DNA of 50,258 nucleotides. Source: Verrucomicrobiota bacterium (GTDB lineage Bacteria; Verrucomicrobiota; Kiritimatiellia; CAIQIC01; JAGNIJ01). Each line of letters opens with the position of its first letter. The first letter of the stretch is position 1. Both the position numbers and the translations under genes were made by a program. The notes beneath the pieces were generated by a model, which did not search any database, was not told the DNA's origin, and saw only the letters and a program-made list of their open reading frames with translations. Shown here piece by piece: positions 1 through 17,413 of this stretch. The stretch is from NCBI GenBank assembly GCA_018823105.1, contig JAHJJH010000282.1:1-50258 (forward strand). Reading direction: 5' to 3'.

Positions 1-29
1 GATCCTGGGCTGCAATAGACAGGGCAGTC

Positions 30-389
30 TCATGACGCCGGGTCTTCCTTGGACCCGAGCCCCGCCTCGTTATCCTCGGCGTACCGGTCCACCACGCTCT
101 TCTCCCAGAGCTTTACCCCCGCGATGTGCGACCCGCGCGCCAGGGCATGCGCGCCGGTCGGCGACGTAATGACAATGAACACGGCGCAGATCAACGCCTT
201 GGCGGCGGCCGCCGGGGAGTGGGTGATCAGCATGACGCCCACCAGGATCAGACAGGTGCCCAGCGTCACGCACTTGGTGGCCGCTTGGAGCCGGTTGTAG
301 ACATCAGGGAGGCGAATCAGCCCGATGCATCCGAACAGGTCGAACAGCACGCCGATGGTTATGACCACAATGCCGGCCACGCTACTCAT
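30..389 (-). CDS. mrpG: Mrp/Mnh-type cation:proton antiporter subunit G
   Basis: 119 aa with about 3 TM helices. LFGCIGLIRLPDVYNRLQAATK matches the conserved MnhG/PhaG N-terminal motif. ATG at 389. It is the last gene of the co-oriented Mrp block. Confidence 0.8.
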   Translation of the reverse strand: MSSVAGIVVITIGVLFDLFGCIGLIRLPDVYNRLQAATKCVTLGTCLILVGVMLITHSPAAAAKALICAVFIVITSPTGAHALARGSHIAGVKLWEKSVVDRYAEDNEAGLGSKEDPAS

Positions 390-651
390 TGAAACCCTTG
401 CCTTCCAAGTGTTTGGCCAGGGCTATGGTGCCGATGAAGCTCACCAGCGCCCACGCGATGGCCACGTTCAATATGTAGTCTTTGCCCGTCGCAATGGATA
501 CCAGGGCGGCGAAGCCGACGACGACGGTCCCCAGGATGTCGATGCCCACCATGCGGTCGGACGACGTCGGGCCCCGGCCGATGCGGTACAGGCACATCCC
601 GCAGCAGAGCAGCAATCCCACCAGGAACAGAATGTACACCACTTCCGGCAT
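382..651 (-). CDS. mrpF: Mrp/Mnh-type antiporter subunit F
   Basis: 89 aa from the ATG at 651, which has AAGGAAG upstream. 3 TM helices and an MnhF-like size and position between E and G. 8-nt overlap with the mrpG start. The longer track start at 717 adds only a charged leader. Confidence 0.7.
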   Translation of the reverse strand: MPEVVYILFLVGLLLCCGMCLYRIGRGPTSSDRMVGIDILGTVVVGFAALVSIATGKDYILNVAIAWALVSFIGTIALAKHLEGKGFNE

Positions 652-689
652 AGACCGCTTCTTCCTTTCCCTTTTCTTCTGCGTCGTCC

Positions 690-1199
690 CTACTCGAAGA
701 TCCTCTGCAGGAACCACTCAAACCGTCCGATGATGCATTCCGACGCCTCGCGTACGCCGGTGGCCCGGACGTTGATCCAGTGGATGTAAAGAAATCCATC
801 GTCGGTCATATCCACCGTCAGCGTGCCCGGGGTGAGCGTGACCGAATTGGCCAGCGCCGTGCGCCCTTCCTGGCTCTTCAGCATCGTCTTGACCTTCACA
901 ATGCCCGGCTCGATGGGCATCGCGGGATGCAGGACCCGGTAGGCGACGTCGAAGTTGGCCTTGACGACGTAGTAGAGGAACACGAACGCGTAGATGATGG
1001 CCCAGAAGTAGCGCACCGGGTTGAGCCAACGCCCGAACCCCGCCGCGGAGATCTCCCGCATGACGACCGCCACGATCAGGGCCACGACCACGCCGACGGC
1101 GATGTCCTGCACCCGGAGCCGACCGGTCACCGGGTCCACGGGCCACACGAGCAGCACCCACAGCAGCAGCGCCAGGATGAAGAGGGGTAGTTTCTTCAT
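690..1199 (-). CDS. mrpE: Mrp/Mnh-type antiporter subunit E
   Basis: 169 aa from the ATG at 1199, in an ATGA overlap with the mrpD stop. Two N-terminal TM helices followed by a soluble part with the VTLTPGT motif typical of MnhE. The remainder of the 616-aa track ORF is an Arg/Gly/Pro-rich shadow frame. Confidence 0.7.
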   Translation of the reverse strand: MKKLPLFILALLLWVLLVWPVDPVTGRLRVQDIAVGVVVALIVAVVMREISAAGFGRWLNPVRYFWAIIYAFVFLYYVVKANFDVAYRVLHPAMPIEPGIVKVKTMLKSQEGRTALANSVTLTPGTLTVDMTDDGFLYIHWINVRATGVREASECIIGRFEWFLQRIFE

Positions 1200-2656
1200 A
1201 GCGTGAAGAACCCTCCGGCAAGAGCGTCCGCCGCCGGCGCGATGAGCAGCGGCGTATCCATGCCCGTGATGATCAGGAACGCCATGCCCACGCAGAGCAC
1301 GGCCAGGATCAGCATGGGCGCGGCCATCAGTCCGGGGATCTGCTGGAGCCGGTCCAGCCCCGCCCGCACCGACCCGAAGAACACGTACCGCTGCACCTTC
1401 AACTGGAAGGACAGCGTCACGAGGCTCATGACCACGGCCGTCACGGCGAGGGCGTAGTGGCCGGACTGCACGCACGCCAGCACGATGATCAGCTTGCTCC
1501 AGAACCCGTTGAAGGGCGGTATGCCCGCGATCGCCATGGAGCCGACCAGCGAGGTGCCGCCGGTGAGCGGCATCACCTTGTTGAGCCCACCGAGCTTCCG
1601 CATGTCGCGCTCCCCCGTGGCGTACTCCACCGCGCCCGCGTTGAGGAAGAGGAGCGACTTGAAGATCGAGTGATTCACCAGGTGGTACAGGCCGCCCACC
1701 AGCCCCAGCGGCGTGCCGAGGCCCAGCCCGAGCACGATGTAGCCCACCTGGCTGATGCTGCTGTAGGCAAAGAGACGCTTGATGTCCCACTGGCCGATCG
1801 CCAGCAGGCCGCCCACGACCATCGACAACACCCCGGCCCAGCGGAGAAGCTGCAGCAGGTTGTCCGTGATGCCGAAGACATTGAAGAGCAGGCGCGCCAG
1901 CACGTAGACCCCGATGGCCTTGATGAGCACGCCGGAGAGCATTGCCGAGATCGGCGCCGGCGCCGCGGGATGCGCGTCCGGCAGCCACGCGTGGAACGGC
2001 ACGAGGGCGGCCTTGAGGCCGAAGCCGCAGAGGAACAGGCTGAGCGCGAACATGAGCGGCGTACTCATTCCCTCGCTGGCGATCTTGGTGGCCACATGGG
2101 CCATGTTGAGCGTGCCCGTCATGCCGTACATGAACGCAATGGCGAGCAGCACGAACGTCGAGGCCACGCTGCCCAGCACGGTATACTTGAAGGCGGCTTC
2201 GAGCTCTTCGTGCTCGCACCCGAACGCCACGAGCGCGTAGGAGGAGATGGAGGCGATTTCCATGAACACGAAGAGGTTGAACATGTCGCCGGTCAGCACC
2301 ACGCCGTTCATGCCCGCCACCATGAAGAGAAAAAGGCTGTAGTAGCGGAACTTCGAGGTGTAGAGCCGCATGTAGTCGACCGAGAACAGCGTGGCCGCCA
2401 GGCCCACGACGTTGACGGCGATGAGCAGCAGCACGCTGAGCCCGTCGAGCCGGAGGTCGATGCCGATCGGCGTTTCCCATCCGCCCATGTGGTAGATTCC
2501 CGTCCGGCCGATGGACGCCAACGCCAGGGCCGTGAGGCACACCATGGTGGCATTGCCCAGCACGTCCGGCGCCCGCGTCAGCTTCCGCGATACCATGGGG
2601 ATGATGAAGGCCATGCCCAGGGGGATCGCGACGAACAATGGAATCATGTTGTTCAT
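1196..2656 (-). CDS. mrpD: MrpD / NuoN-NuoM family proton-translocating antiporter-like subunit
   Basis: 486 aa polytopic protein. Family signatures are FNLFVFMEI, HAWLPDAHPAAPAPISAMLSGVLIK and KRLFAYSSISQVGY. Confidence 0.85.
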   Translation of the reverse strand: MNNMIPLFVAIPLGMAFIIPMVSRKLTRAPDVLGNATMVCLTALALASIGRTGIYHMGGWETPIGIDLRLDGLSVLLLIAVNVVGLAATLFSVDYMRLYTSKFRYYSLFLFMVAGMNGVVLTGDMFNLFVFMEIASISSYALVAFGCEHEELEAAFKYTVLGSVASTFVLLAIAFMYGMTGTLNMAHVATKIASEGMSTPLMFALSLFLCGFGLKAALVPFHAWLPDAHPAAPAPISAMLSGVLIKAIGVYVLARLLFNVFGITDNLLQLLRWAGVLSMVVGGLLAIGQWDIKRLFAYSSISQVGYIVLGLGLGTPLGLVGGLYHLVNHSIFKSLLFLNAGAVEYATGERDMRKLGGLNKVMPLTGGTSLVGSMAIAGIPPFNGFWSKLIIVLACVQSGHYALAVTAVVMSLVTLSFQLKVQRYVFFGSVRAGLDRLQQIPGLMAAPMLILAVLCVGMAFLIITGMDTPLLIAPAADALAGGFFTL

Positions 2657-2672
2657 TCTCGACCGGGGTCGC

Positions 2673-3020
2673 TTACCCCTTCAGCCTCCTCATCTCCGTG
2701 ATATCGAACGTCCCGTACCGCTCGTAGAGCCGGATACAGAGGGCCACCATCAGGGCCAGCACGCCGAGACTGATCACGATGGACGTCAGCACGAGCGCCT
2801 GCGGCAGCGGATCCACCGCGTTGGCCACGAACAGCGAGGCATCGGCGGCCTGGTCCATGATCGGCGGTTCGCCCTTGAACCGGTAGCCCAGCAGGATCAG
2901 GAACAGGTTGACTCCATACTCCATGATCGCCAGGCTGATCACGATCTTGACGATGTTCTTCTTGACGACGACCCCGTACAGGCCGATCGCAATCAGCACG
3001 AAACAGAGTGAATAGATCAT
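2673..3020 (-). CDS. mrpC: MrpC / NuoK-like small membrane subunit
   Basis: 115 aa from the ATG at 3020, in an ATGA overlap with the upstream stop. 3 TM helices with a glutamate in the membrane (IMEYGVNLFLILLGY), as in MnhC/NuoK. Confidence 0.8.
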   Translation of the reverse strand: MIYSLCFVLIAIGLYGVVVKKNIVKIVISLAIMEYGVNLFLILLGYRFKGEPPIMDQAADASLFVANAVDPLPQALVLTSIVISLGVLALMVALCIRLYERYGTFDITEMRRLKG

Positions 3021-3517
3021 GACTCGTCCTTCCCGCGTCGTACGAGATCCCGCTTGCCGTCCTGTCGCACGGTTACGTGCAGGGCGGACAGCATCGCAAA
3101 AACGAGGAACAGGGACACCCCTACCTTGATCCCGATGCCGATGTTGCACGGGAGAATCACGCCGGCGCTGAAGAGGTGGAACTGCGCCGCCTCGGGGGTC
3201 GCAATGATATTCTTGAAGAAGACCTGGGCCACCACCAGCCCGGCCACGGCGACCCCCAGGAAGATCAGGGCCCCCACGCTGTCCAGCTCCGCGGCCACGG
3301 CCGGATTGAGCGTCTTGGAAGCCACCCGCTGCCCCTCCGCCAGCGTCAGCAGGATGAAGGCGCAGGCGATGATCACGCCGCCGGCGAATCCGCCGCCCGG
3401 GGTCAGGTGTCCGTACAGGACAATGTAAATCCCGTACAGCAGGATGAACCCCTCGACCCAACGGGTCACCGTTTTCACGATGACGCTCATCCCTTCTCTG
3501 GAAGAACGGCCGTTCAT
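3017..3517 (-). CDS. mrpB: MnhB-domain (MrpB-like) membrane subunit
   Basis: 166 aa. GHLTPGGGFAGGVI is the MnhB-domain signature. 4 TM helices. ATGA overlaps at both ends. Confidence 0.7.
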   Translation of the reverse strand: MNGRSSREGMSVIVKTVTRWVEGFILLYGIYIVLYGHLTPGGGFAGGVIIACAFILLTLAEGQRVASKTLNPAVAAELDSVGALIFLGVAVAGLVVAQVFFKNIIATPEAAQFHLFSAGVILPCNIGIGIKVGVSLFLVFAMLSALHVTVRQDGKRDLVRRGKDES

Positions 3518-4083
3518 GCGCTCTCCGATTCCTTGTCCGCTTCCGCCTGTTTCTTGCGCGCCTTCCGCCGCAGGATGGTCAGCGCGCCCAGGATCGAGCA
3601 GAACAGGATCGTGGCTTCGCCCAGGGTGTCATAGCCCCGGAAATCCAGCAGGATGGCCGTGACGATGTTCGCGGCGCCCGTCTTGGCCAGCCCCTGCTCC
3701 AGATAGGTCGTGGACGGCGCCCCGGCCACGCGGTCCATCACGGCCACCCCGAAGGGCGGGAACTGCTCGAACATATGGACGCTCAGGACGGCCACGGCCA
3801 GCACGGCCGCCACCGTCACGATCATGCCGAACAACTCGCGGTCGCCCGTGATGGTGGTCAGATCACGACTGATCGTGGCCCGTATGAGCACGACCAGGAC
3901 CAGGATCTCGACCACGATCTGCGTGATGGCGATGTCCGGCGCGCCGAGGAAAAGGAACACGATCGACAGCAGGAAGCCCACCGCGCCCACGCTGATGATG
4001 GAAGAAAGCAGGTTCGAGGTCTCGATGGCCACCAGCGCGCCCACGATCATCAGCAGCAGCAGTATGATCAGCAGTTCCGACAT
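3514..4083 (-). CDS. MrpA C-terminal-like membrane subunit (DUF4040 / MbhD-MbhE type)
   Basis: 189 aa with about 5 TM helices. The LLDFRGYDTLGEATI motif is found in the MrpA C-terminal region and in MbhE. It sits between the NuoL-like and MnhB-like genes, as in split Mrp modules of Mbh-type complexes. Confidence 0.6.
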   Translation of the reverse strand: MSELLIILLLLMIVGALVAIETSNLLSSIISVGAVGFLLSIVFLFLGAPDIAITQIVVEILVLVVLIRATISRDLTTITGDRELFGMIVTVAAVLAVAVLSVHMFEQFPPFGVAVMDRVAGAPSTTYLEQGLAKTGAANIVTAILLDFRGYDTLGEATILFCSILGALTILRRKARKKQAEADKESESA

Positions 4084-4084
4084 G

Positions 4085-5947
4085 TTAACCCCACAGCCTC
4101 ATCAACATATACAGGATGACCAGCAGGCCCGCCATAACCCAGGTCAGGTAGACCGGAAGCAGGCCCGCGTGCGCCTTGCGCAGCGCTTCGATGAAATACA
4201 TGGCAGTTCCCCGGCCCACGTCGTAGATGTCGAACACCTTCTTTGCGGCCAGATCGTACATCTTGTGGATCAACGGCAGGTCCTGGATGGTCTGATAGAA
4301 ATCGACCCCGGTTACTTCCACGTCGCGGCTCGGTCCGCGCGCCACGCCCTGGATGTAGGGTTCGCTCATGACCTCGCCGCCGATATACGGCTGGCACGTG
4401 CGCACCTTCCGCGCGCTGGTCAGGAAGTACAGGACCAGGCCCAGGGCAATGCCCGCCAGCAGCATGACGGTCGCCGGTCCCGCCCCCCACACGCCCGTGA
4501 AGTCCACGGAGGCTCCGATGGCGGGACGGATCAGATACGGAAGCGGCAGGTGGTGGACCAGGACGCCGAAAGCCACGCAGGTCGCCGCCAGTATGGTCGT
4601 GGGCAGCCACATGGTGAACCCCACCTCGCGAACGTTCTTGCGCGCCACGTCCGGCGAGGCTTTGCGCAGGAACGCGGCGTGCAGCACCTTGACGAAGCTC
4701 GCGAGCGTCAGCGCCGAGCCGAGCATGGCCGCCACCAGCCATATGACCCACAGGCGCCCGCCCCGGCCGCCTTCGATGATGCCCTGGTACACCATCCATT
4801 TCGACGCGAACCCGTTCAGCGGCGGGATGCCCGAGATGGACAACGCCGCCACCACGAACGCCGCGAACGTCAGGGGCATGGCCTTTCCCAACCCGCCCAG
4901 CCGGTCCAGGTCCGTGGTCCCCGTCTGCTTCTCCACCGCGCCCGCGCAGAGGAACAGGGCGGACTTGTAGATCGCGTTGTTCAGCATGTGGAACAAGCCG
5001 CCCGCAATGCCGACCGCCGTGCCGGACGCGATGCCGAGCACCATATAGCCGACCTGGCTCACGGCGTGGTAGGACAGCAGGCGCTTCATGTCGTGCTGGA
5101 CCAGGGCCATCATGACCGCGAACAGCACCGTGACAGCGCCGATGAGCATCAGCAAGCCTTTCATCAGGCCGTCGAGCGTGAACAGGTCGACGACCACCCG
5201 GACCAGTAGGTAGATGCCGAGCAGCTTGTCGAGCGAGGCCGGGAGCAGCGCGGCCACGGGGACGGGGGCCTTCTCGCCGCAATCCGGGACCCAGCTGTGC
5301 AGGGGCATGGCCCCGGCCTTTGCGAAGGCCGCCGCCACGAACGACAGGAAGGCCACGTACGCGACGCGACTCCCGAGCGCCATGGCCGGGCCGTCCATGC
5401 GCGTCGAGCCCGTCTTGACCCACACCAGCACGACGCCGAGCATCAGGATGCAGTCCGAGCCGCCGATGATGATGAAGCTCTTCTTGGCCGCGTCCGCGGC
5501 GTCCGGCCCCGCGATCCCGATCAGCAGGTAGAGCGTGATGCCCAGGAACCCCCACAGGATCAGCAGCAGGACCAGGTCGTTCGCCATCACCGCGCCCAGC
5601 GACGCGCCGAGCGTCCACAGAACGTACGCGTAGTACTCCCGGAGCCTCGCCTTGCCCTTCATGAAGCCGACCGAGTACACCGTGATCAGAAGACCGAAGA
5701 CCGCGGTGGCCAGCAGCACGAACGCGCTCAATCCGTCGATCCGCAGGCTGACCCACCCCGCCAGATCGGCCACCTGGTTCCCGCCGCGGAACACGGGCCA
5801 CACCGCGACCAGCGTAAGCGCCGCGGCCACGACGGCGACGAACCCGCGCACCCGGTCGAGTGCTTTCGGCAGCAGGAGGCACAGGAAGCCTGCGATCACC
5901 GGGATGGTTACCGGCAGCACCATAGGATTCAGCAGCACGTCCAGCAT
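4085..5947 (-). CDS. NuoL/MrpA/MbhH-like antiporter-type subunit of the membrane-bound hydrogenase
   Basis: 620 aa polytopic protein. Signatures are HSWVPDCGEKAPVPVAALLPASLDKLLGIYLL and KRLLSYHAVSQVGYMVLG (NADH-quinone oxidoreductase chain 5 / MrpA family). Its start is 2 nt from the large-subunit stop. Confidence 0.85.
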   Translation of the reverse strand: MLDVLLNPMVLPVTIPVIAGFLCLLLPKALDRVRGFVAVVAAALTLVAVWPVFRGGNQVADLAGWVSLRIDGLSAFVLLATAVFGLLITVYSVGFMKGKARLREYYAYVLWTLGASLGAVMANDLVLLLILWGFLGITLYLLIGIAGPDAADAAKKSFIIIGGSDCILMLGVVLVWVKTGSTRMDGPAMALGSRVAYVAFLSFVAAAFAKAGAMPLHSWVPDCGEKAPVPVAALLPASLDKLLGIYLLVRVVVDLFTLDGLMKGLLMLIGAVTVLFAVMMALVQHDMKRLLSYHAVSQVGYMVLGIASGTAVGIAGGLFHMLNNAIYKSALFLCAGAVEKQTGTTDLDRLGGLGKAMPLTFAAFVVAALSISGIPPLNGFASKWMVYQGIIEGGRGGRLWVIWLVAAMLGSALTLASFVKVLHAAFLRKASPDVARKNVREVGFTMWLPTTILAATCVAFGVLVHHLPLPYLIRPAIGASVDFTGVWGAGPATVMLLAGIALGLVLYFLTSARKVRTCQPYIGGEVMSEPYIQGVARGPSRDVEVTGVDFYQTIQDLPLIHKMYDLAAKKVFDIYDVGRGTAMYFIEALRKAHAGLLPVYLTWVMAGLLVILYMLMRLWG

Positions 5948-5948
5948 C

Positions 5949-7169
5949 CTATCGCTCCAGCTTCAGCTTCGGGCCTTCGTGCCCCAGTTCCTTCTTCAGG
6001 CGCTCGGTTTTCTCCTGCGAAAGCCGGATAAGCTCCTGTGACGACAACACCTTCCTCCCCGTGCCGGCGTCCACGACCGCCATGCGCTCGGTGCAGCAGT
6101 AGCACGGGTCCACCGCCGCCAGGATAATCGTCGCGTCGGCCACGGTCTCGCCCAGCACGGCCACGCGATTCGAAACGACGTTCATGAAGCTCGGCGCGCG
6201 GACCTTGTGGCGCGCGGGCCGGTTCGAGCCGTCGCTGCGGATGTAATGGAACACCTCGCCGCGGGGCGCCTCGTAGTGGCCGATGCCCTCGCCGGGTTTC
6301 ACTTCCTTGGGATTCGAGTCCACGGGGCCCGGAACGGTCTTCAGCTTTTCCAGGCATTGCTCGATGATCCTGATGGACTCGAACATCTCCAGGACACGCA
6401 CGATGGCCTTGTCGTACACATCCCCGTGCTGCATCACGACCACGTCCCAGTCCACGAGCCCGTAGGCCGCGTGCGGGTGGTCCCTGCGCACGTCGATCGC
6501 GACGCCGGAGGCCCTAGCGGTCGGGCCGACCACGCAGTAGTCGATCGCCTGCGCCTTCGTCAGCACCCCCACACCTTCCGTGCGGGCATGGATCAGCGGA
6601 TCGTCGATCACCGCCCCCTTGAACAGGTTGATCGGACCCTTCAACCCGTCCAGCATCTTCCGAATGGCGGGGAGATCCTCGGCCTTGATGTCGCGGCGCA
6701 CGCCGCCGGGCTTCATCATGGCGTAGTGGTTGCGGTTCCCCGAGATCAGCTCCAGGATATCGAGCACATCTTCGCGGTACCGCCACGACCACATCCAGAC
6801 GGTGTTGAACCCGAGGAAGTGACCGGCCAGCCCGAGCCACAGCAGATGCGAGTGAATGCGCTCCAGTTCGCCGATCGTCGAGCGGATATAGAGCGCCCGT
6901 TCCGGGACCTCGATGTCCCCCGCGTCCTCGACGGCCTGCACACAGGCAATCGGGTGTGAGCATGAGCAGATGCCGCAGATGCGCTCAACGAGGAACACCG
7001 TCTCCTCGAAGGTCTTCGATTCCGAGAGCTTCTCGATGCCCCGGTGGTTGTAGCCGAGCTCGATGTCCAGATGGACCACCTTCTCGCCCTCGACGTGAAG
7101 CTTGAAGAACTCCGGCTCTTCCTGGAGCGCGTGATAGGGTCCGATGGGTACTATGGTTGTCTTCGCCAT
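5949..7169 (-). CDS. [NiFe]-hydrogenase large subunit, group 4 (NuoD/MbhL/HycE-like)
   Basis: 406 aa. Both NiFe-ligand CxxC pairs are present: N-terminal RICGICSCSH and C-terminal DPCYCCTER. The NuoD-like core shows the GPYH and EAPRGE motifs. It is flanked by NuoC-, NuoB-, NuoH- and NuoL-like genes. A 44-aa tail follows the C-terminal motif. Confidence 0.9.
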   Translation of the reverse strand: MAKTTIVPIGPYHALQEEPEFFKLHVEGEKVVHLDIELGYNHRGIEKLSESKTFEETVFLVERICGICSCSHPIACVQAVEDAGDIEVPERALYIRSTIGELERIHSHLLWLGLAGHFLGFNTVWMWSWRYREDVLDILELISGNRNHYAMMKPGGVRRDIKAEDLPAIRKMLDGLKGPINLFKGAVIDDPLIHARTEGVGVLTKAQAIDYCVVGPTARASGVAIDVRRDHPHAAYGLVDWDVVVMQHGDVYDKAIVRVLEMFESIRIIEQCLEKLKTVPGPVDSNPKEVKPGEGIGHYEAPRGEVFHYIRSDGSNRPARHKVRAPSFMNVVSNRVAVLGETVADATIILAAVDPCYCCTERMAVVDAGTGRKVLSSQELIRLSQEKTERLKKELGHEGPKLKLER

Positions 7170-7176
7170 GTGCTCA

Positions 7177-7620
7177 CTACTTCTCGTAGTCCCTTCTCAG
7201 CGGGTACTTGCCCTCGGGCCAGTTGTCATCGAGCAGCAGGTGCCTCAGGTCCGGGTGATTCTTGAAGTGAACGCCCAGCAGCTCCCACATTTCCCGCTCG
7301 ATCCATTCCGTACCGGTGCAGATGGACGAGACGGATTCGATCTCCGGATGCTCGCGATCCAGCTTCGTGCGGATCGTGACCACAAAACCCTGCTGGTCGA
7401 ACGCCCAATGATAGAGGATTTCGATCGCCGTCGGCGTGTCGACGCCCGACGCGATCTGGAACCGCGCCCCAAGTTCCTTGTGGATCAGGCGCGTGGCCTC
7501 CGGAACGTCCTCGGGCCGCACCTCGACGTAGTAGCGCTTGGCCGATTTCTCGTGGAAATCCACGATCTTCGCGCCCAGGCGCTCTTTGATCTGCGCCACG
7601 ATTTCTTCGCGCGTCATCAT
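7177..7620 (-). CDS. NuoC/MbhK-like hydrogenase subunit
   Basis: 147 aa. The ERE.WE..G-type motif (IEREMWELLGVHFKNHPDLR) is typical of the NuoC / HycE N-terminal domain family. Confidence 0.8.
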   Translation of the reverse strand: MMTREEIVAQIKERLGAKIVDFHEKSAKRYYVEVRPEDVPEATRLIHKELGARFQIASGVDTPTAIEILYHWAFDQQGFVVTIRTKLDREHPEIESVSSICTGTEWIEREMWELLGVHFKNHPDLRHLLLDDNWPEGKYPLRRDYEK

Positions 7621-7629
7621 GCAACCTTC

Positions 7630-7707
7630 GATGTAGCGGCGCGTGTGTCACGCGCCGAATGATCTCCGCGTCTCACCTTCTGCGCGTGTCACACGCGCAG
7701 CTACATC
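7630..7707. repeat. 78-bp intra-operon palindromic element (27-nt imperfect inverted repeat containing two 8-bp-stem hairpins)
   Basis: Left arm gatgtagcggcgcgtgtgtcacgcgcc (7630-7656). Right arm tgcgcgtgtcacacgcgcagctacatc (7681-7707). The reverse complement of the right arm differs from the left arm at 3 positions. Each arm is also self-complementary (ggcgcgtg-tgt-cacgcgcc and tgcgcgtg-tca-cacgcgca). Confidence 0.8.
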
Positions 7708-7713
7708 ATTTGT

Positions 7714-8136
7714 TCATCCGCCTCTTAGTTTCCCAATCAGCTTCACGATCGCCGAAATCATCGCCTCGGGCTTCGGCGGACACCCCCCCACGTACGCGTC
7801 GATCGGGATATACTCGCCCGGCGGCACATCCCAGTTGTAGGAGTCCCTGAACATCAGCCCCGTGGCCGGGCAGCCGCCGATCCCCACGACCACGATGGGC
7901 TTGGGCGCCTGCTCGTAGAGGTGCTTCAGCCGGACCGCGGACTTCTTGTTGAAAATGCCCGAGAGGAGCAGCACATCCGCGTGCTTGATGCTGCCGACCA
8001 GCGTAATACCGAACCTTTCCACGTCGTACCGCGGCGTCAGCACGTCGAGGATCTCGATATCGCAGTTGTTGCATGCGCTTCCCGCCACGTGGAAAACGTT
8101 CAGCGACCTCGTCAGAGCCTGGATGGCAAAACTCAT
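7714..8136 (-). CDS. [NiFe]-hydrogenase small subunit, group 4 (NuoB/MbhJ-like)
   Basis: 140 aa. The single proximal 4Fe-4S ligand pattern is present: GSACNNCDIE, GGCPATG and GGCPPKPE. Confidence 0.85.
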   Translation of the reverse strand: MSFAIQALTRSLNVFHVAGSACNNCDIEILDVLTPRYDVERFGITLVGSIKHADVLLLSGIFNKKSAVRLKHLYEQAPKPIVVVGIGGCPATGLMFRDSYNWDVPPGEYIPIDAYVGGCPPKPEAMISAIVKLIGKLRGG

Positions 8137-8140
8137 CTTG

Positions 8141-9067
8141 TCACCAACCCATAAACGCCAGGACCACCGCCGCCAGCGCCACGACGGTCACGGGTCCCCA
8201 GAAAAATTTGACGGCCTGGTCGATCCGCATCCTCGGCGCCGTGTTCCGTATCAGCACGATGACCACGACCAGGCCCACATACTTGAGGATGCCCAGCACG
8301 ATGTCGAGCCATCCCGTGCCGAACCGGATCCCGCCGCAGTACAACGCGACGAGGAACATCGGCATCGTGAACAGCATCATCGCGCGCGTCAGCTTGAACA
8401 GGCCGAGCGGCGGTCCTGAATACTCGATGTAGGCGCCCCCCGTCAACTCGGTCTCCGCCTCCGGCGCATCGAAGGGCACCAGCGTCAGCTTCGCCTGCAT
8501 GCAGAGCATGGCCACCAGGAGGGCCAGCACGCCCGAGGGCGCCGCGACGGCCGGCGATGCGGACAGGATGTCCCCCATGCGGATGCTCTGCGCGTGGATC
8601 ACGGGCACCAGGGCGGCGAGGACGAACGGCAGCTCGTAGCCCATCACCAGCTTCATCTCGCGGCTGCCGCCGACCGAAGCCAGCGGGTTGCAGGACGCGA
8701 AGGAGCCCAGGATCACCGCCAGCGCGGGCATGGTCAGCAGGTAGATCAGCACGATCAGATCGCCCGCGAACGTCTCGGACGGCACCATCAACGCGCGCCA
8801 CAGGATCGTCGAGGCGGCGCTCACGGCGGCCAGCCCGATCAGCGGCGCCGAGAGGAACAGCCAGGCCGGCGCGCCGGCCGGCACCGTGGTCTCCTTGATC
8901 ATGTACTTGACGATGTCGTAGAACGGCTGCAGGAAGGGCGGGCCCACGCGCATCTGCACCCGCGCGGTCACCTTCCGGTCGATCCAACTCGTCACCAGGC
9001 CGACGACCGCGGTGAAGAGCATCCCCGGGAAGACCAGGTACTGAACTATGATGTCGCCGTAGTACAT
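8141..9067 (-). CDS. NuoH/MbhM/HycD-like membrane subunit
   Basis: 308 aa from the ATG at 9067. RKVTARVQMRVGPP matches the NuoH-family N-terminal signature. About 8 TM helices. The upstream portion of the 460-aa track ORF overlaps the ferredoxin gene in another frame. Confidence 0.85.
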   Translation of the reverse strand: MYYGDIIVQYLVFPGMLFTAVVGLVTSWIDRKVTARVQMRVGPPFLQPFYDIVKYMIKETTVPAGAPAWLFLSAPLIGLAAVSAASTILWRALMVPSETFAGDLIVLIYLLTMPALAVILGSFASCNPLASVGGSREMKLVMGYELPFVLAALVPVIHAQSIRMGDILSASPAVAAPSGVLALLVAMLCMQAKLTLVPFDAPEAETELTGGAYIEYSGPPLGLFKLTRAMMLFTMPMFLVALYCGGIRFGTGWLDIVLGILKYVGLVVVIVLIRNTAPRMRIDQAVKFFWGPVTVVALAAVVLAFMGW

Positions 9068-9069
9068 GT

Positions 9070-9555
9070 TCAGACCGCTTTCTTGTCCCACCTGGGCGAG
9101 TGAACCGCGAGCCAGTCGTTCACGATGAAGATTCCTTCCTTCGCGGACTCCGCCACCTCGCGGTACTCGATCGCCTTGTTCACGCAGCTCACCACGCAGG
9201 GCGGCTCCACGCCCTCCTTCTGCAGGCAGAAATCGCAGTTCGTCACGTAGAACGGCAGCGTGTCCGGCAGGATCGTGCCGAACGGGCACGCATGGCTGCA
9301 GCACTTGCAGCTCACGCAACGCAGGTTGTAGCGCTTGAGCACGCCGTCCTCCTGCCGCTCCAGCGCCTCGAAGCGGCACGCGGCGACGCAGCTCGCGTCC
9401 TCGCAGCGCCTGCAGAAGATCGCGAAGTTCGCCAGTTCGCGTAACGCGAGCGCGCCGTGGTCGGTGGCTTTCGGCCGGTAGAAATAGGCACACTGCACCT
9501 CGCACTTCGCACAGTCGGTGCACTTCTCCAAGTCGATGAACAGCCTCTTGCCCAT
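9070..9555 (-). CDS. HycB-like polyferredoxin (multiple 4Fe-4S clusters)
   Basis: 161 aa from the ATG at 9555, with GGGAG upstream. Start is 7 nt after the gamma' stop. Several Cys-rich cluster motifs are present: CTDCAKCEVQC, CRRCEDASCVAAC, CVSCKCCSHACP and CDFC...CVVSC. Confidence 0.8.
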   Translation of the reverse strand: MGKRLFIDLEKCTDCAKCEVQCAYFYRPKATDHGALALRELANFAIFCRRCEDASCVAACRFEALERQEDGVLKRYNLRCVSCKCCSHACPFGTILPDTLPFYVTNCDFCLQKEGVEPPCVVSCVNKAIEYREVAESAKEGIFIVNDWLAVHSPRWDKKAV

Positions 9556-9562
9556 TCTTTGC

Positions 9563-10390
9563 CTACTCCCAGATCTTCGGTACCGATTGAATCGAGCCAT
9601 ACGTGAAGACCGGCCCGTCCTTGCACGCGTACTGCGTGCCGATGCGGCAATGGCCGCACTTGCCCACGCCGCAGCTCATGTTCTTCTCCATGGAAAGGTA
9701 GATGCTCTCCGGCGGATACCCGCGCTTCAGCAACGCCACGGTCGCGAATTTCATCATGATCGGTGGCCCGCAGACCACGGCAACGCCGTTCTTGGGATCG
9801 CAGCGCAGGTTTTTCTCGTCCAGGATCGCCGTCACGACGCCCACCGGGCCCGTCCACGTGTCGTCCCCCCGGTCCACGGTCACCAGCACGTCCAGCGCGT
9901 CACCCTGGTCCCATTTCTTCGCGACGGCGTCGCGGAACACGATGTCGCGGGGCGTCTTGGCGCCGTACCGGATGATGATCTTCTTGAAGCTGCTCACCTC
10001 CTGCAGCAGGGCAAACAGCAGGGCCCGGAGCGGCGCCAGGCCTACGCCGCCGCCCACGATCACGACCTCGCGGCCGCGGAACGACTCGATCGGATAGCGC
10101 TGGCCGAGCGGCCCGCGAAGGCCCACCTCAGCGCCCGGCGCGAGGCTGTGCAGCTTGTCGGTGACGCGGCCCGCCCGCATGATCGTGATCTCCATGTGGT
10201 CCTTCACCGCCGGAGACGAGGACGGGGTGAACGGTGCTTCGCCGACGCCGGGCACCGTCAGTTCGATAAACTGGCCGGCCTCGAACGACATCGCCTCGGC
10301 CGGACGCACCGAAAACGTCTTGATGTTCGGCGTCTCCTCGATGACCGCCTCGATCCTGGCCGGGACCGGCATGTACAGGTCAGGCTTCAT
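9563..10390 (-). CDS. HydG/AsrB-like FAD/NAD(P)-binding 2Fe-2S oxidoreductase (second copy, gamma')
   Basis: 275 aa with an FNR-like fold. Motifs are GQFIELTVPGVGEAPFTPSS, a GGGVGLAPLRAL nucleotide site, and the C-terminal CGVGKCGHCRIG...C 2Fe-2S motif. It is a diverged paralog of 14737-15585. Confidence 0.85.
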   Translation of the reverse strand: MKPDLYMPVPARIEAVIEETPNIKTFSVRPAEAMSFEAGQFIELTVPGVGEAPFTPSSSPAVKDHMEITIMRAGRVTDKLHSLAPGAEVGLRGPLGQRYPIESFRGREVVIVGGGVGLAPLRALLFALLQEVSSFKKIIIRYGAKTPRDIVFRDAVAKKWDQGDALDVLVTVDRGDDTWTGPVGVVTAILDEKNLRCDPKNGVAVVCGPPIMMKFATVALLKRGYPPESIYLSMEKNMSCGVGKCGHCRIGTQYACKDGPVFTYGSIQSVPKIWE

Positions 10391-11417
10391 CCACCGCCCT
10401 CTTCAGCACGTCGCGAATGTCGATCTTGCCCGTGCATGCTTCCACGCAACGCCCGCAACCGTCGCAGGCGTACGTCTTCAGGACGTCCGGGAAGAAGTTG
10501 AACTTCTTGTCAAAGCGATTGAGTAGCCGTTCCGCCCGATGGGGCCGCATGTTGGCGCCGCCCGCCACGCGCGCGAAGTTCTTGAACAGGCAGGAATCCC
10601 AGAGCTTCACCCGCTCCGGGGCGCCGCTCGCGCCGCGCCCGTCCGCCAGCAGGAAACAATGGCACGTGCAGCAGCAGAAATTGCAGGCGCCGCACTCCAC
10701 GCAGTCCTCGGCAAAATCCTCCCACAGCTTGGACTCAAAGGACTTGCTGATCGCCTTCTTGAAGTCCATGCCGGGGCGCAGCCCCTTCGCCGCGGCCTGG
10801 TCCACGACCCGCTGGTACATCGCCGCCCGGCTCTTGTCCCGCTCCTGCACCAGCGCGTCGCCGGCCGGCTGGAGCAGGTCGCGCGCGGCCTCGAGGACAC
10901 GCGCTCCCCGCTCACTGCCCGTCTCGATCACGTAGCCCTTCGGCGTGGGAGAGACGTTGATGTCGAATCCCTCCTTCGCATGCGGCTGCTCGCCGACCAC
11001 GGGACAGAAGCAGACCTCCAGGCAGTCGGTGCAGTCGCACGAGACGAGGATGGTTTTCTCCCGCGCCTCTGCGTAAAGGGGATCCGCGGGCTCGGTCTTG
11101 AGCATGACGTGGTCGTGAATGCGCAAGGCGGAAAGATCGCAGTTCTTCACGCCGATCATGATCCGCTCGGGCATCGCCGGCTGTTCGCCATTTCCACCGA
11201 CCTGCCCCAGGAACTCGCGCGGGCGGAACACCAGGGATTTCAGGGGTTCGACCGGTCGGAACGAACCGAGGGTGGACGTGCCGGGTTGCCATGTCTCGGC
11301 CCGGACGAGATGGTACTGGCCCGCGTCGGACGGCTCGAGCGCATACACGACGCGGCCGCGGCTGATCGCACAGAGGACGTCATCTATGGAGTGCCCACTC
11401 GCGATCTGATAGCGCAT
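10380..11417 (-). CDS. HydB/AsrA-like 4Fe-4S subunit (second copy, beta')
   Basis: 345 aa from the ATG at 11417, with GGAGA 8 nt upstream. Cys clusters are CVECGACNFCCCTCHC and CDGCGRCVEACTG. It is a paralog of 15582-16607. 11-nt overlap with gamma'. Confidence 0.8.
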   Translation of the reverse strand: MRYQIASGHSIDDVLCAISRGRVVYALEPSDAGQYHLVRAETWQPGTSTLGSFRPVEPLKSLVFRPREFLGQVGGNGEQPAMPERIMIGVKNCDLSALRIHDHVMLKTEPADPLYAEAREKTILVSCDCTDCLEVCFCPVVGEQPHAKEGFDINVSPTPKGYVIETGSERGARVLEAARDLLQPAGDALVQERDKSRAAMYQRVVDQAAAKGLRPGMDFKKAISKSFESKLWEDFAEDCVECGACNFCCCTCHCFLLADGRGASGAPERVKLWDSCLFKNFARVAGGANMRPHRAERLLNRFDKKFNFFPDVLKTYACDGCGRCVEACTGKIDIRDVLKRAVDEA

Positions 11418-11552
11418 CCGAACCGTCTCCTGGCGAATGATGGATAAAAATCGGGGATAAATTACAACAGGCCCCGGCAGGGACACAAGAACGAACCCAA
11501 AAAAAGTGGACGGTGTGGGGCGTTGAACCCACGCGCGCTACCCAAAGTAGAC

Positions 11553-12029
11553 TCAAAGGCGAACCGCCTGGTCATCAAGGAGATCCCGGGCTACAAGATT
11601 CGAATACTCCTCCAGACGCCCCGCCAGGATATCGGATACTTCCATGCCCGGCTCGAGGCGCGCCGGCTGAATGGCGAAGATGATGATTTCCGCGGGGCAC
11701 TCGCCCAGCCGCCTGGAAAGGTCCAGGAGGCTGAACAGGTCGCCTTCGTGCAGCGACAGGCCGGGGAGTTTCTTGAGGCTGGCCGCCTGCTCGGGCGTGA
11801 AGCGCCGGATCGTGCCCGGGGGCTCGCCCATCAGGGCGCAATCCACGAAGATCGCCTTCGGGTGTCCCGCCATCGCGTGCAGCGCGGCCATGCCGGAAGT
11901 GCCTGCCTCCAAAAAACTAACGCCGGGAAAGCGATCGGCATGCGCGGCCAGGCGTTCCACCACGCGGATACCGATGCCCTCATCGGCCATCAGAATGTTG
12001 CCCAATCCGATGACTATCGTGTCTTGCAT
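11553..12029 (-). CDS. [NiFe]-hydrogenase maturation endopeptidase (HybD/HycI/FrxA family)
   Basis: 158 aa from the ATG at 12029. IVIGLGNILMADEGIGIRV matches the GxGNxxxxDDGxG family signature, and a downstream HEG motif (SLHEGDL) is present. The track start at 12092 is a TTG with no RBS. Confidence 0.85.
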   Translation of the reverse strand: MQDTIVIGLGNILMADEGIGIRVVERLAAHADRFPGVSFLEAGTSGMAALHAMAGHPKAIFVDCALMGEPPGTIRRFTPEQAASLKKLPGLSLHEGDLFSLLDLSRRLGECPAEIIIFAIQPARLEPGMEVSDILAGRLEEYSNLVARDLLDDQAVRL

Positions 12030-12687
12030 CCTCTTGCCTGCGTTGGGATCGACGTTGATAAAGCCGCTCGGTGAACCCACCCTCCTTTTCAAAGGCCGAC
12101 GCCTGTGCCGCCATCTGGCGGTCGAGGAGGTAACAACATAGATTCAGAAGACAAAGGGCGCCGTTGGCAACGAAAACGGCGGGCGCAATGGGGGGCAGCA
12201 CGGACGAACACGGACTGACACGGACGCCTTTAGGACTGTTTATATTTATTGTCCGTGTTTGTCTGTGTCCGTCGGTGTTCTTCTCCGCTCTTTTCACCTC
12301 ATTGGCCACCCACGCTCGGAATTCGTCCAGGGTGGCGCAGCGGCGCACCTTGAGTCGCTGAAGCGCCGTGTGGTCCGGTTCCCATTTGGGCAAGCCCTTT
12401 TGTCGCAGAAAGTCCTCAAAGTCGCGCCGCAATTCCTCCAAGCTGGCACGGGCTACGCTGGTCAGCTTGATCTCCATCTTCTTCGAGGTGCCGGAAACCT
12501 GGCTTCCCTCGGCGATGTTTTGGACTCCACTTCGCGCGGCCTGCACCATCTGGTCATGGGTCCGACTGCGGGGTGGAATGTACTGATCGCAAAACCGCAC
12601 CGTGAGGTCGAAGACCAGTTCCGCCAATTGAAAGCTCTTAAGCTTCCGATATCCGCCATGCGGAGGGATCAGCGGTTCATTCGGCAC
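11980..12687 (-). CDS. four-helix-bundle protein with suffix domain (23S rRNA intervening-sequence protein family)
   Basis: GTG at 12687, 6 nt after an AGGAG that overlaps the hydrogenase large-subunit TAG stop. The N-terminus IPPHGGYRKLKSFQLAELVFDLTVRFC, the SGVQNIAEGS motif and the C-terminal EKEGGFTERLY suffix are typical of the TIGR02436-like family. The 3' end overlaps the protease start by 50 nt. Confidence 0.75.
   Translation of the reverse strand: MPNEPLIPPHGGYRKLKSFQLAELVFDLTVRFCDQYIPPRSRTHDQMVQAARSGVQNIAEGSQVSGTSKKMEIKLTSVARASLEELRRDFEDFLRQKGLPKWEPDHTALQRLKVRRCATLDEFRAWVANEVKRAEKNTDGHRQTRTININSPKGVRVSPCSSVLPPIAPAVFVANGALCLLNLCCYLLDRQMAAQASAFEKEGGFTERLYQRRSQRRQEDARHDSHRIGQHSDGR
12199..12277. 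repeat. 27-nt imperfect inverted repeat with an AT-rich 25-nt centre, embedded in-frame in the four-helix-bundle CDS
   Basis: Left arm cacggacgaacacggactgacacggac (12199-12225). Right arm gtccgtgtttgtctgtgtccgtcggtg (12251-12277). 22 of 27 positions are complementary. The centre is gcctttaggactgtttatatttatt. It translates as NTDGHRQTRTININSPKGVRVSPCSSV without a stop. Confidence 0.8.
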
Positions 12688-12695
12688 GGGCGCTC

Positions 12696-13994: not shown

Positions 13995-14737
13995 GAGGTG
14001 GGCTCCTGCCCGCTGCCGAAGAGCAGCAGCCGGCTCTTCAAGTCGTCCATGGTCTTGCCGTAGTGCTCCATGACCTCGCGCGCGGCCTGGACGTTGGGAT
14101 CGTCCACGTAGCCGCGGCAGCCGAAACACCAGAATCCGGCCGAGGGGCAGGGGGCGTTGCAGCCGGCGCGCGTGACCGGGCCGAGGCAGATTTCGTTATA
14201 CTCATAGCGGCAAACGGTTCCGCGCATCTTGCACTCGACGCAGACGGGGTAGTTGGGGATCGCCGGCGTCTTGCCCAGGGCCAGGCAGCGCAGGATGTAG
14301 GCGAATTCCCTGTTGTTGATCGGGCAGCCGTGGATCTTGAGGTCCACCTTGACCACCTCGTCGAGCGCCCTGGTCGGCAGGGTGTTCAGGTGCGGCATCG
14401 AGCCGTCCTTGCCGTACACCTCGGCCCGGACCTCGTCCATGGCGAAGTTGTTCTTCAGCTTGTTAATGCCGCCCATCGTGGCGCAGGCGCCGAGGGCGAT
14501 CAGGATCGCGGCCGGCGCGCGAATCTCACGCAGCTTTTCCTCGTCCTCGGGACGAGTGATCGAGCCCTCGACGATGGCGATGTCGTAGGTGTCGCTCTGG
14601 TCGCTGAGGGCCTCCCGCCATTCCACGGGCTGGATCAGCGTAAGCACGTCGAGAAGTTCTTCCTCCAGGTTGACGATCTGGAGCTGGCACCCCTCGCAGC
14701 AGGCAAAATCGAAGATGGCTACGCGCGGCTTGTCCAT
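13991..14737 (-). CDS. hyhS: [NiFe]-hydrogenase small subunit, group 3b type (delta / HyhS)
   Basis: 248 aa with no Tat signal. It has the FDFACCEGCQ N-terminal cluster motif, GACATMGG, and Cys-rich distal cluster motifs (CVECKMRGTVC, CNAPCPSAGFWCFGC). Confidence 0.9.
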   Translation of the reverse strand: MDKPRVAIFDFACCEGCQLQIVNLEEELLDVLTLIQPVEWREALSDQSDTYDIAIVEGSITRPEDEEKLREIRAPAAILIALGACATMGGINKLKNNFAMDEVRAEVYGKDGSMPHLNTLPTRALDEVVKVDLKIHGCPINNREFAYILRCLALGKTPAIPNYPVCVECKMRGTVCRYEYNEICLGPVTRAGCNAPCPSAGFWCFGCRGYVDDPNVQAAREVMEHYGKTMDDLKSRLLLFGSGQEPTS

Positions 14738-16607: not shown

Positions 16608-16670
16608 AGGATTTCTCCTTCGGCTTCGAGCCTCGCCGCGTCGCGGTGAGGCCCGCGGAAAGGGGGCGGG

Positions 16671-17063: not shown

Positions 17064-17157
17064 CGGGCACCTCGCGGAATACGCGTGCAAATCGTACTTA
17101 CACCTTACACAAGCCGGCGTGAGATGACCAGCCTTTTTTCCCCGCTTCTTCTCATCC

Positions 17158-17391: not shown

Positions 17392-17413
17392 CCTGTTCCC
17401 CCGAAGCTCGGCG

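Follow-up and report, generated by a model that had tools for sequence, protein, structure and literature searches.

A cluster for a group 4 [NiFe] hydrogenase bound to the membrane, with sulfhydrogenase-type beta and gamma subunits, a candidate ion-coupled NAD(P)H:H+ oxidoreductase

The stretch of DNA analyzed here (the window; 50,258 nucleotides [nt], positions 1 to 50,258 of contig JAHJJH010000282.1 from a Kiritimatiellia member of the Verrucomicrobiota, assembly GCA_018823105.1) holds at one end a minus-strand operon for a group 4 [NiFe] hydrogenase that is membrane-bound and joined to an Mrp-type module, and the first three genes of this operon encode subunits that we term beta', gamma' and the polyferredoxin. 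We see about an even chance that the cluster encodes a modular complex in the style of formate hydrogenlyase, with a sulfhydrogenase beta-gamma-type NAD(P)H dehydrogenase in place of FdhF or CooS, and that this complex works as a reversible, ion-coupled NAD(P)H:H+ oxidoreductase. The gene content, the homologies, the conservation of ligands and the co-inheritance of the genes were observed.

A beta'-gamma'-polyferredoxin trio co-inherited with a group 4 hydrogenase

By its sequence, the catalytic large subunit truly belongs to the group 4 [NiFe] hydrogenases. Its closest matches in the PDB were MbhL (1e-83) and HycE (8e-81), ahead of Nqo4 (1e-63) and MbsL (6e-53), with group 3 enzymes at 1e-16 or weaker. 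One genome per GTDB species was scanned with the large subunit, which gave a close relative in at least 536 species; the 80 best relatives (63 to 84% identical), which span more than 12 phyla, supplied most of the conservation counts reported below. The predicted Ni-Fe ligands Cys65, Cys68, Cys356 and Cys359 are 99 to 100% conserved in these 80 relatives, and Cys22, Cys25, Cys89 and Cys119 of the small subunit are 100% conserved in 75. The initial annotation had called the large subunit a true hydrogenase, and this is supported both by the almost complete retention of the four ligands and by the greater closeness to MbhL and HycE than to NuoD and MbsL. A HydDB group 4g assignment is suggested by proxy, from a relative (L064) whose large subunit is 65% identical and which has the same 16-gene cluster. 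This relative is a metagenome-assembled genome (MAG) of Ca. Saelkia tenebricola, whose sole hydrogenase was typed as group 4g, Mrp-linked and assumed to be ferredoxin dependent, with no mention of the beta and gamma genes (PMC8542988); group 4g is polyphyletic, and groups 4b and 4d are paraphyletic (PMC13582414). None of the operon subunits reached an NCBIfam equivalog cut-off, so no curated name fits any of them.

Beta' and gamma' had been annotated as HydB/HydG-type proteins, and structural databases place them with the corresponding subunits of Pyrococcus furiosus sulfhydrogenase I (SHI). The sole PDB match of beta' was SHI-beta (9nez_B, 4e-34), and its 15 cysteines, invariant in 61 relatives, all align with cysteines of SHI-beta. 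Among NCBIfam models, beta' ranked ShyB above HydB and HydB above AsrA, all far under their cut-offs (for the two subunits, bits versus cut-off were 158.8 versus 690 for ShyB, 190.7 versus 650 for HydG, 110.9 versus 323 for AsrA and 211 versus 288.6 for AsrB). Gamma' matched SHI-gamma (9nez_C, 2e-55), and its nucleotide motif GGGxGxAPLR, flavin loop GEAPFTPSS and four [2Fe-2S] cysteines are invariant in 64 sequences. An AlphaFold2 (AF2) model of gamma' (predicted local distance difference test [pLDDT] 90, predicted template modeling [pTM] score 0.88) had the NADPH-bound chain C of SHI as its top PDB fold match (TM score 0.87), and on this model gamma' has an intact FNR-type fold. A functional NAD(P)/FAD site, whose absence on structural modeling the initial annotation had listed among its refuting conditions, therefore appears to be present, given the quality of the model, the fold match and the invariance of GGGxGxAPLR. 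Strand beta-2 is always followed by R/K and then T/S (R/K145 and T/S146), which is usual in NADPH-preferring enzymes of the FNR family and is not decisive.

The polyferredoxin matched, in the PDB, a 152-amino-acid "Fe-S-cluster-containing hydrogenase subunit" (9mqx_E), the Fe-S subunits of AOR/WOR, HycB (3e-10), HydN and DmsB, with a marginal match only to Nqo9. These HycB/CooF/DmsB-type rather than NuoI-type matches agree with its earlier description as HycB-like. All 16 of its cysteines are invariant in 31 close relatives, and the first Cys motif is conserved at 70 to 83% in the wider family; its AF2 model reached a pLDDT of 56, too low to support a comparison of folds. The sole recognizable substrate-binding site in the trio is that of gamma', as beta' and the polyferredoxin match iron-sulfur domains only.

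Beta' and gamma' are 30% and 42% identical, respectively, to the HydB and HydG of a neighboring group 3b hydrogenase encoded 4 to 5 kb upstream. These values rule out a recent hydBG duplication, and by sequence beta' and gamma' are old paralogues of group 3b HydB and HydG. They do not qualify as HydB and HydG orthologues, since their scores lie under the equivalog cut-offs and their genes are always linked to group 4 genes. Nor are they part of an AsrABC system, as the cluster has no AsrC-like gene and the AsrA and AsrB scores stay under their cut-offs. No domains of the complex I N-module (NuoE/F/G) were found in the cluster by Pfam, the nucleotide module being of the FNR/PyrK type.

The operon comprises 16 genes: 15 lie between 30 and 11417, and a NuoI/HycF-like gene begins at base 33 with an ATG that overlaps the stop codon of mrpG; up to the window edge it encodes MRLPCLLQPRI. 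In a related 5.6-Mb genome (L081), mrpG is followed, with a 4-nt overlap, by a gene for a 203-amino-acid protein with two 4Fe-4S motifs that starts with MKLPSFLQPRI; its best PDB match was HycF (7z0s_F, 2e-18), and then NdhI, MbsN and MbhN. A NuoI/HycF-like gene follows MrpG in 52 of the 52 related loci that have room for it. All six group 4 core homologues are thereby accounted for, with NuoB, C, D, H and L in the window and the NuoI-like protein at full length in relatives, and the complex is not short of a NuoI-type subunit. We had considered the polyferredoxin as a NuoI replacement, a candidate that is ruled out by this gene (seen in L081 and, for its first 11 codons, in the window).

The layout of the locus in the relatives was determined by tblastn with every window protein. 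Wherever a locus of the 80 relatives is long enough, the genes from beta' through MrpG keep their order and strand, a truncated gamma' in L078 being the single exception, so the co-occurrence of asrA/asrB-like genes with mbh-mrp genes that the initial annotation had proposed to look for was found in all sufficiently long loci. The relatives come from Verrucomicrobiota, Kiritimatiellia, Lentisphaerota, Fibrobacterota, Planctomycetota, Gammaproteobacteria and Gemmatimonadota MAGs and also from Actinomycetota, Clostridia, Omnitrophota, Elusimicrobiota, Eisenbacteria, Hydrogenedentes and Ignavibacteria MAGs. Across the family, median intergenic gaps range from -4 to +6 nt. The pairwise identities of beta', gamma' and the polyferredoxin follow those of the large subunit with r = 0.82, compared with r = 0.81 to 0.82 for NuoH and NuoB, and a reverse start from two gamma' homologues led to the same 16-gene cluster, with hyp genes ahead of it. 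The trio belongs integrally to the cluster and is inherited with it. Conserved order, co-variation of identities and the recovery of the same cluster from gamma' together indicate that the cluster is inherited as one unit, which has evidently been transferred between phyla, and the recurrence of the same order in every related locus that is long enough puts the arrangement far beyond chance.

Proposed electron path and competing explanations

Since HycB-type and HycF-type ferredoxins are both present, the wiring would be as in formate hydrogenlyase, and since gamma', with its FAD/NAD(P)H site, is the only member of the trio in which a substrate site is recognizable, a reversible NAD(P)H:H+ oxidoreductase coupled to ion movement is favored. 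The initial annotation had put beta' and gamma' in the position of FdhF or CooS; the 16th gene strengthens this placement, as the predicted chain would correspond to HycB to HycF to HycG to HycE. Electrons from NAD(P)H would enter the FAD of gamma', pass to its [2Fe-2S] cluster and the iron-sulfur clusters of beta', and continue through the HycB/CooF-like polyferredoxin (up to four [4Fe-4S] clusters) and the NuoI/HycF-like subunit (two [4Fe-4S] clusters) to the proximal cluster of the NuoB-like subunit and the Ni-Fe site, where H+ and H2 would be interconverted. Redox turnover at the NuoB/NuoD/NuoH junction would be coupled to H+ or Na+ movement, the membrane arm having two antiporter-like subunits and the MrpB/C/E/F/G sodium module. 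At low, pascal-level H2 and with a reduced NADPH pool, reductant could be vented as H2 in a mildly exergonic reaction that may conserve energy; at higher H2, the oxidation of NAD(P)H to H2 would need an ion gradient as driver, and in reverse H2 would reduce NAD(P)+ with ion pumping. With E0' at -320 mV (NAD(P)H) and -414 mV (H+/H2), the span is ~94 mV, similar to the ferredoxin-to-H+ span that drives MBH, a membrane-bound hydrogenase, and H2-driven NAD(P)+ reduction could thus pump ions. The physical assembly of the complex, NAD(P)H as its physiological partner, the ion coupling and the direction of turnover are the parts of this reading that we infer. Slightly more doubtful, at somewhat under an even chance, is the extension to the whole clade (at least 536 species, more than 12 phyla), which would then consist of true ion-motive NAD(P)H:H+ oxidoreductases, complex-I-like machines that independently recruited a nonhomologous FNR-type NAD(P)H dehydrogenase and use protons instead of quinone.

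One regulatory hint speaks for an NAD(P)H-linked enzyme: the gene for the NADH-sensing Rex repressor (PF06971 plus PF02629) lies directly before beta' in seven relatives (L026, L028, L029, L031, L032, L034 and L035, from Clostridia and Gemmatimonadota MAGs), which hints at control by the NADH/NAD+ ratio. Several points weigh against such an enzyme. Rex governs ferredoxin-dependent hydrogenases too in other organisms, so the hint is weak evidence, and in the window no Rex box (TTGTGAAnnnnTTCACAA, at most 3 mismatches) was found and no Rex gene was seen. Sigma-70 promoters were absent from 9000 to 17500 and terminator-like sites occurred at chance rate, results that are uninformative on whether hycI, the last gene upstream of the operon, and beta' are co-transcribed. 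In one relative, a Rhodopirellula MAG (L078), gamma' (7256 to 7507) is cut to its first 84 codons in an otherwise intact cluster; either the NAD(P)H subunit has really been lost here or the assembly is at fault. The soluble group 3b NAD(P)-linked hydrogenase of the same window would, if both enzymes used one nucleotide simultaneously, set up an H2 cycle that dissipates the gradient. Ferredoxin may dock on the polyferredoxin or the NuoI-like subunit, and our literature search found no biochemical, structural or expression study of the clade, which has been treated as ferredoxin coupled under HydDB group 4g (PMC5037454, PMC8542988, PMC11257099).

We weighed an arrangement in which ferredoxin is the main donor, through the polyferredoxin or the NuoI-like subunit, and beta' and gamma' form a side branch (ferredoxin:H+ plus ferredoxin:NAD(P)+ activities), or in which ferredoxin and NAD(P)H are confurcated onto protons; the confurcation version would merge in one complex what MBH and the soluble SHI do in Thermococcales. 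We give this serious rival roughly a one-in-four chance, and it has several observations in its favor: the typing of the clade as group 4g, "putative ferredoxin-coupled", in the studies just cited, the retention of the NuoI-like subunit, the site used by ferredoxin in MBH, the 70 to 83% conservation of the first polyferredoxin Cys motif, which hints at a variable distal end, the NIL-domain ferredoxin gene ahead of beta' in eight Omnitrophota loci, and the branched bifurcation or confurcation proposed for related group 4b clusters (PMC13582414). What counts against it is that the trio is invariably present and co-evolves with the core, which fits a primary partner better than an accessory, that in formate hydrogenlyase the HycB-type subunit caps HycF and bears the input enzyme, that gamma' resembles the nonbifurcating FNR/PyrK-type flavoproteins, and that no ferredoxin-binding feature was identified in the subunits.

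The other explanations appear far less probable. Reduction of sulfur or polysulfide by beta' and gamma', like the in vitro "sulfhydrogenase" activity, with H2 or other reductant passed to S0 in an MBS-like sulfur respiration, is suggested by homology with the beta and gamma subunits of sulfhydrogenase (AsrA and AsrB being more distant homologues) and by the two antiporter-like subunits in the membrane arm, as in MBS. We consider it highly improbable, because the large subunit keeps all Ni-Fe ligands, unlike that of MBS, no AsrC/siroheme or sulfur-transfer genes were found in the cluster, the flanks of relatives carry no conserved sulfur-related genes, and the polysulfide alternative has no specific support; in addition, S0 reduction by SHI is regarded as nonphysiological. 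That beta' and gamma' lie outside the membrane complex, as a spare copy for the neighboring group 3b enzyme or as an independent soluble oxidoreductase, is strongly disfavored and in our estimate the least credible of the explanations. A full hydBGDA operon does lie immediately upstream in the window and in L080, with a 135-nt spacer between hycI and beta', but some 60 related loci have the order beta'-gamma'-polyferredoxin-nuoH and only one of them (L080) has the 3b operon upstream; overlaps and short gaps persist among the relatives, beta' and gamma' co-vary with the large subunit to the degree seen for core subunits, and identity to the neighboring HydB and HydG is low, as given above. Finally, a third substrate enzyme, an Fdh-like molybdopterin protein encoded elsewhere, might join the complex in a three-way bifurcation or confurcation, as has been proposed for related clusters (PMC13582414, PMC6349859). 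No FdhF, CooS or molybdopterin gene was found in the window, which thus lacks an input enzyme of the formate hydrogenlyase or CO type, and genes for an FdhA-like molybdopterin protein, a second AsrA-like protein and FdhD/MobA occur upstream in only 4 of the 45 relatives with enough upstream sequence (all Clostridia); in the other 41, as in the window, the Fdh-like gene is absent and hyp genes, Rex or unrelated genes hold that position, so that we give this explanation a very low probability.

Operon structure and genomic neighborhood

The features of the membrane hydrogenase operon and of the adjacent group 3b operon are listed in Table 1. The window has 64% G+C, and real genes are recognizable by a G+C content at third codon positions (GC3) of 0.8 to 0.9. 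The genes of the initial annotation were all recovered on the minus strand, in the stated order and at the stated coordinates, each with the expected Pfam domain, and the motifs RICGICSCSH, DPCYCCTER, GGGVGLAP and CGVGKCGHC are present in the translations. The block continues, as described there, directly into a split Mrp module of seven Mrp-type genes (30 to 4083) with matching Pfam domains; the contiguous MbhD/E, MnhB and MrpC, D, E, F and G homologues make the operon an Mrp-linked group 4 cluster of the HydDB 4b/4d type, and they recur in the relatives. A ribosome-binding site, GGAG, precedes the beta' ATG at 11417. Genes overlap by 11 nt (beta'/gamma'), 8 nt (MrpF/MrpG) and 4 nt at several other junctions, and the gaps are 7, 2, 4, 93, 7, 1 and 1 nt, plus 16 nt (MrpC/MrpD) and 38 nt (MrpE/MrpF). 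The tight junctions and their 93-nt exception thus stand as first reported, but the last two gaps exceed the upper limit then given for the remainder.

Table 1. Features of the membrane-bound hydrogenase operon and of the upstream group 3b hydrogenase operon in the window
Feature	Positions	Strand	Domains, homology and remarks
beta'	10380-11417	-	Fer4_22; SHI-beta/HydB/AsrA-like iron-sulfur subunit
gamma'	9563-10390	-	FAD_binding_6 + NAD_binding_1 + DHODB_Fe-S_bind; SHI-gamma/HydG/AsrB-like FNR-type flavoprotein (NAD(P)H site, FAD, [2Fe-2S])
Polyferredoxin	9070-9555	-	Fer4_11; HycB/CooF/DmsB-type; four Cys motifs (16 Cys), predicted at most four [4Fe-4S]
NuoH/MbhM-like membrane anchor	8141-9067	-	NADHdh PF00146, 3.7e-64
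NuoB/MbhJ-like small subunit	7714-8136	-	Oxidored_q6; four Cys for proximal [4Fe-4S]
Intergenic spacer, 93 nt, long hairpin	7621-7713	-	Hairpin energy -53.4 kcal/mol (z = -6.1); median gap of 1 nt in relatives
NuoC/MbhK-like subunit	7177-7620	-	Complex1_30kDa PF00329
[NiFe] catalytic large subunit	5949-7169	-	NiFeSe_Hases + Complex1_49kDa; L1 RICGICSCSH, L2 DPCYCCTER; ~44-amino-acid C-terminal extension
NuoL/MbsH'-like antiporter-like subunit, 620 amino acids (first of two)	4085-5947	-	Proton_antipo_M (+ Proton_antipo_N)
MbhD + MbhE domain subunit, like the MrpA C-terminal part	3514-4083	-	PF13244, PF20501
MnhB-domain subunit	3017-3517	-	MnhB PF04039
MrpC/NuoK-like subunit	2673-3020	-	Oxidored_q2 PF00420, 8.3e-27
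MrpD-type antiporter-like subunit, 486 amino acids (second of two)	1196-2656	-	Proton_antipo_M PF00361, 5.7e-68
MrpE/MbhA-like subunit	690-1199	-	MNHE PF01899, 3.5e-38
MrpF/MbhB-like subunit, 89 amino acids (length as in relatives)	382-651	-	MrpF_PhaF PF04066
MrpG/MbhC-like subunit	30-389	-	PhaG_MnhG_YufB PF03334, 2.7e-25
NuoI/HycF/MbhN-like 2x[4Fe-4S] subunit, 5' end only (11 codons, MRLPCLLQPRI)	1-33	-	L081 homologue; remainder beyond the window edge
Group 3b HydB	15582-16607	-	
Group 3b HydG	14737-15585	-	
Group 3b small subunit	13991-14737	-	
Group 3b large subunit	12696-14129	-	T. kodakarensis / P. furiosus cytosolic hydrogenase alpha, 1e-64
HycI-type protease	11553-12092	-	

Residues 10 to 531 of the 620-amino-acid NuoL-like subunit align with the 618-amino-acid chain 6u8y_X of the MBS structure, which we take to be MbsH', and its core matches MbhH (3e-51). 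The 93-nt spacer between the NuoB-like and NuoC-like genes contains a long imperfect inverted repeat with arms near 7639 to 7655 and 7682 to 7698, each arm being the palindrome GCGCGTGTGACACGCGC, and its RNA is predicted to form a hairpin of -53.4 kcal/mol (z = -6.1). There is no second copy of the repeat in the window, and the nuoB/nuoC junction in relatives has a median gap of 1 nt; the spacer therefore looks like a lineage-specific insertion within the operon, which may serve mRNA processing or stability or be a repetitive extragenic palindromic (REP)-like element.

Directly upstream, on the same strand (11553 to 16607), a soluble group 3b hydrogenase is encoded by a complete operon, hydB-G-D-A, together with a HycI protease gene; among the 80 relatives, L080 alone has this adjacency. 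The organism thus has soluble and membrane-bound enzymes with beta/gamma-type NAD(P)H modules side by side. An open reading frame at ~11980 to 12680 (minus strand), between the 3b large subunit gene and hycI, encodes a protein resembling the "23S rRNA-intervening sequence protein"/four-helix-bundle family (PF05635, 3.8e-7, under the gathering cut-off), and at its 3' end this frame overlaps the probable start of hycI. A 139-amino-acid protein with a CBS domain pair, encoded just upstream of the 3b hydB (16671 to 17090, minus strand), may be a nucleotide-sensing regulator of the hydrogenase region.

Maturation genes are found on the plus strand at 26574 to 30852 and encode HypF (~380 amino acids, 26574 to 27716), HypD (28487 to 29545) and HypE (29833 to 30852). 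The HypF of the window has the Kae1-like C-terminal domains only, the acylphosphatase, zinc-finger and YrdC parts seemingly missing; a short HypF beside the cluster also occurs in Omnitrophota loci, and a full-length HypF is found in L010, L012 and L082. Between the hydrogenase and hyp genes (17414 to 26169) lies an acetate/acetyl-CoA block with genes for an acetyl-CoA hydrolase/transferase-GNAT fusion, an ADP-forming acetyl-CoA synthetase-like protein, a deacetylase, an AMP-forming acetyl-CoA synthetase and an MFS transporter, which fits a fermentative, acetate-producing or acetate-using lifestyle. In the relatives, hypA/D/E/F flank the cluster in 11 to 12 loci. The eight Omnitrophota loci mentioned above (L036, L038, L039, L043, L045, L048, L050 and L054) have, upstream of beta', the gene for a 144-amino-acid protein with a NIL domain and a 2x[4Fe-4S] ferredoxin domain and, also directly upstream of beta', that for a conserved 243-amino-acid protein without a Pfam match; both products may be lineage-specific accessory electron carriers.

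Relation to known systems and implications

The nearest solved homologue of the large subunit is that of P. furiosus MBH (group 4d; PDB 6CFW), which shares the NuoB/C/D/H/I-like peripheral module and the MrpE/F/G, MnhB, MbhD/E and MrpC module. MBH differs in taking electrons from free ferredoxin at MbhN, with neither a HycB-like polyferredoxin nor a flavoprotein, in having one antiporter-like subunit where there are two here, and in gene order. Two antiporter-like subunits are likewise found in P. furiosus MBS (PDB 6U8Y), and the 486-amino-acid subunit of the window is MrpD/MbsH-like; MbsL, however, lacks the full set of Ni-Fe ligands, reduces polysulfide and is a weaker match than MbhL. The modular wiring predicted here is that of Escherichia coli formate hydrogenlyase (group 4a; PDB 7Z0S), of the Mrp-linked formate- or CO-dependent hydrogenases of Thermococcus (group 4b) and of Coo (group 4c); HycE, HycB and HycF of the E. 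coli enzyme rank with the top PDB matches for, respectively, the large subunit, the polyferredoxin and the 16th gene product. The input of formate hydrogenlyase and Coo is FdhF or CooS, whereas here it would be an FNR-type NAD(P)H flavoprotein with an Fe-S subunit, and the E. coli enzyme has no Mrp module, unlike the window cluster. In SHI (group 3b; PDB 9NEZ/9NF0), whose beta and gamma subunits are homologous to beta' and gamma' and have the Cys ligands and nucleotide motif in common with them, the beta-gamma pair is docked, within a heterotetramer that is soluble, on a group 3 small subunit, whereas the pair of the window would be tied to a group 4 membrane complex via the polyferredoxin. 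Complex I offers an analogy in its succession of a nicotinamide-nucleotide dehydrogenase, an Fe-S wire and a NuoB/D/H junction with antiporter-like subunits. Its NuoE/F/G are not homologous to the FNR/PyrK-type module, its flavin is FMN in contrast to FAD here, and its acceptor is quinone in contrast to H+ at the Ni-Fe site; the cluster also has the Mrp sodium module.

Related clusters have been noted before. Matheus Carnevali et al. (2019) described in Saganbacteria RX5A an "enigmatic" Mrp-Mbh cluster with fdhH-, asrA-, asrB- and cooF-like genes and suggested an oxidoreductase module (PMC6349859); its nearest sequences were from Omnitrophica and Zixibacteria, and many Omnitrophota loci carry the window-type cluster. 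Meheust et al. (2020) reported in Elusimicrobia an "Mbh-Mrp-oxidoreductase type" of unknown function (bioRxiv 10.1101/765248), an uncharacterized 4g enzyme was reported from Endomicrobium (PMC11257099), and a September 2026 paper found, in clusters of group 4b, homologues of SHI-beta/gamma alongside an Fdh-like protein that is inactive, and proposed from AlphaFold models that H2, NADPH and an unknown substrate take part in bifurcation or confurcation (PMC13582414). Our literature search found no biochemical or structural work on any of these. Likened by gene content, the in silico clusters of Saganbacteria, Elusimicrobia and group 4b have AsrA/HydB-, AsrB/HydG- and CooF-like genes, the Mbh core and Mrp side by side, as here; they include a molybdopterin (Fdh-like) protein, with the donor unknown or a three-way bifurcation proposed, whereas the window and 41 of 45 relatives are without that gene. 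Beta/gamma-type subunits do not appear in the Staphylothermus marinus mbh/mbx paper (PMC2678158) or in a review of complex I evolution (PMC8165549), and nothing specific was found in the hydrogenase literature on Kiritimatiellota and Endomicrobium. As far as our search could show, the claim that no characterized enzyme has this composition stands, but that of novelty is qualified by the clusters described in 2019, 2020 and 2026. The Fdh-less form is the majority among the relatives examined, and we did not find it discussed in the literature as an NAD(P)H-linked enzyme. The cluster is an uncharacterized variant of the modular group 4 hydrogenases that was partly anticipated in silico.

The disposal of NAD(P)H as H2 is uphill by ~18 kJ/mol under standard conditions and is a central problem for fermenters and syntrophs. 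Two routes are known, one through [FeFe] hydrogenases that confurcate electrons and one through Rnf, which feeds a ferredoxin-dependent Ech or Mbh; if our reading is true, the cluster would provide anaerobes with a third electron route linking nicotinamide nucleotides to H2, one that an ion gradient drives or that conserves such a gradient. It would also represent a second, independent attachment of a nucleotide dehydrogenase to the MBH/Mrp scaffold, which bears on the evolution of complex I, and the "ferredoxin-coupled" annotation of these group 4g-typed enzymes would be mistaken in hundreds of genomes. Carriers of the cluster are common among Kiritimatiellia, Verrucomicrobiota, Lentisphaerota, Planctomycetota, Omnitrophota, Elusimicrobiota, Fibrobacterota and other groups, and metabolic reconstructions now score the cluster as a ferredoxin-dependent H2 producer; should NAD(P)H be its partner, the redox balances and H2 thresholds predicted for these organisms would change.

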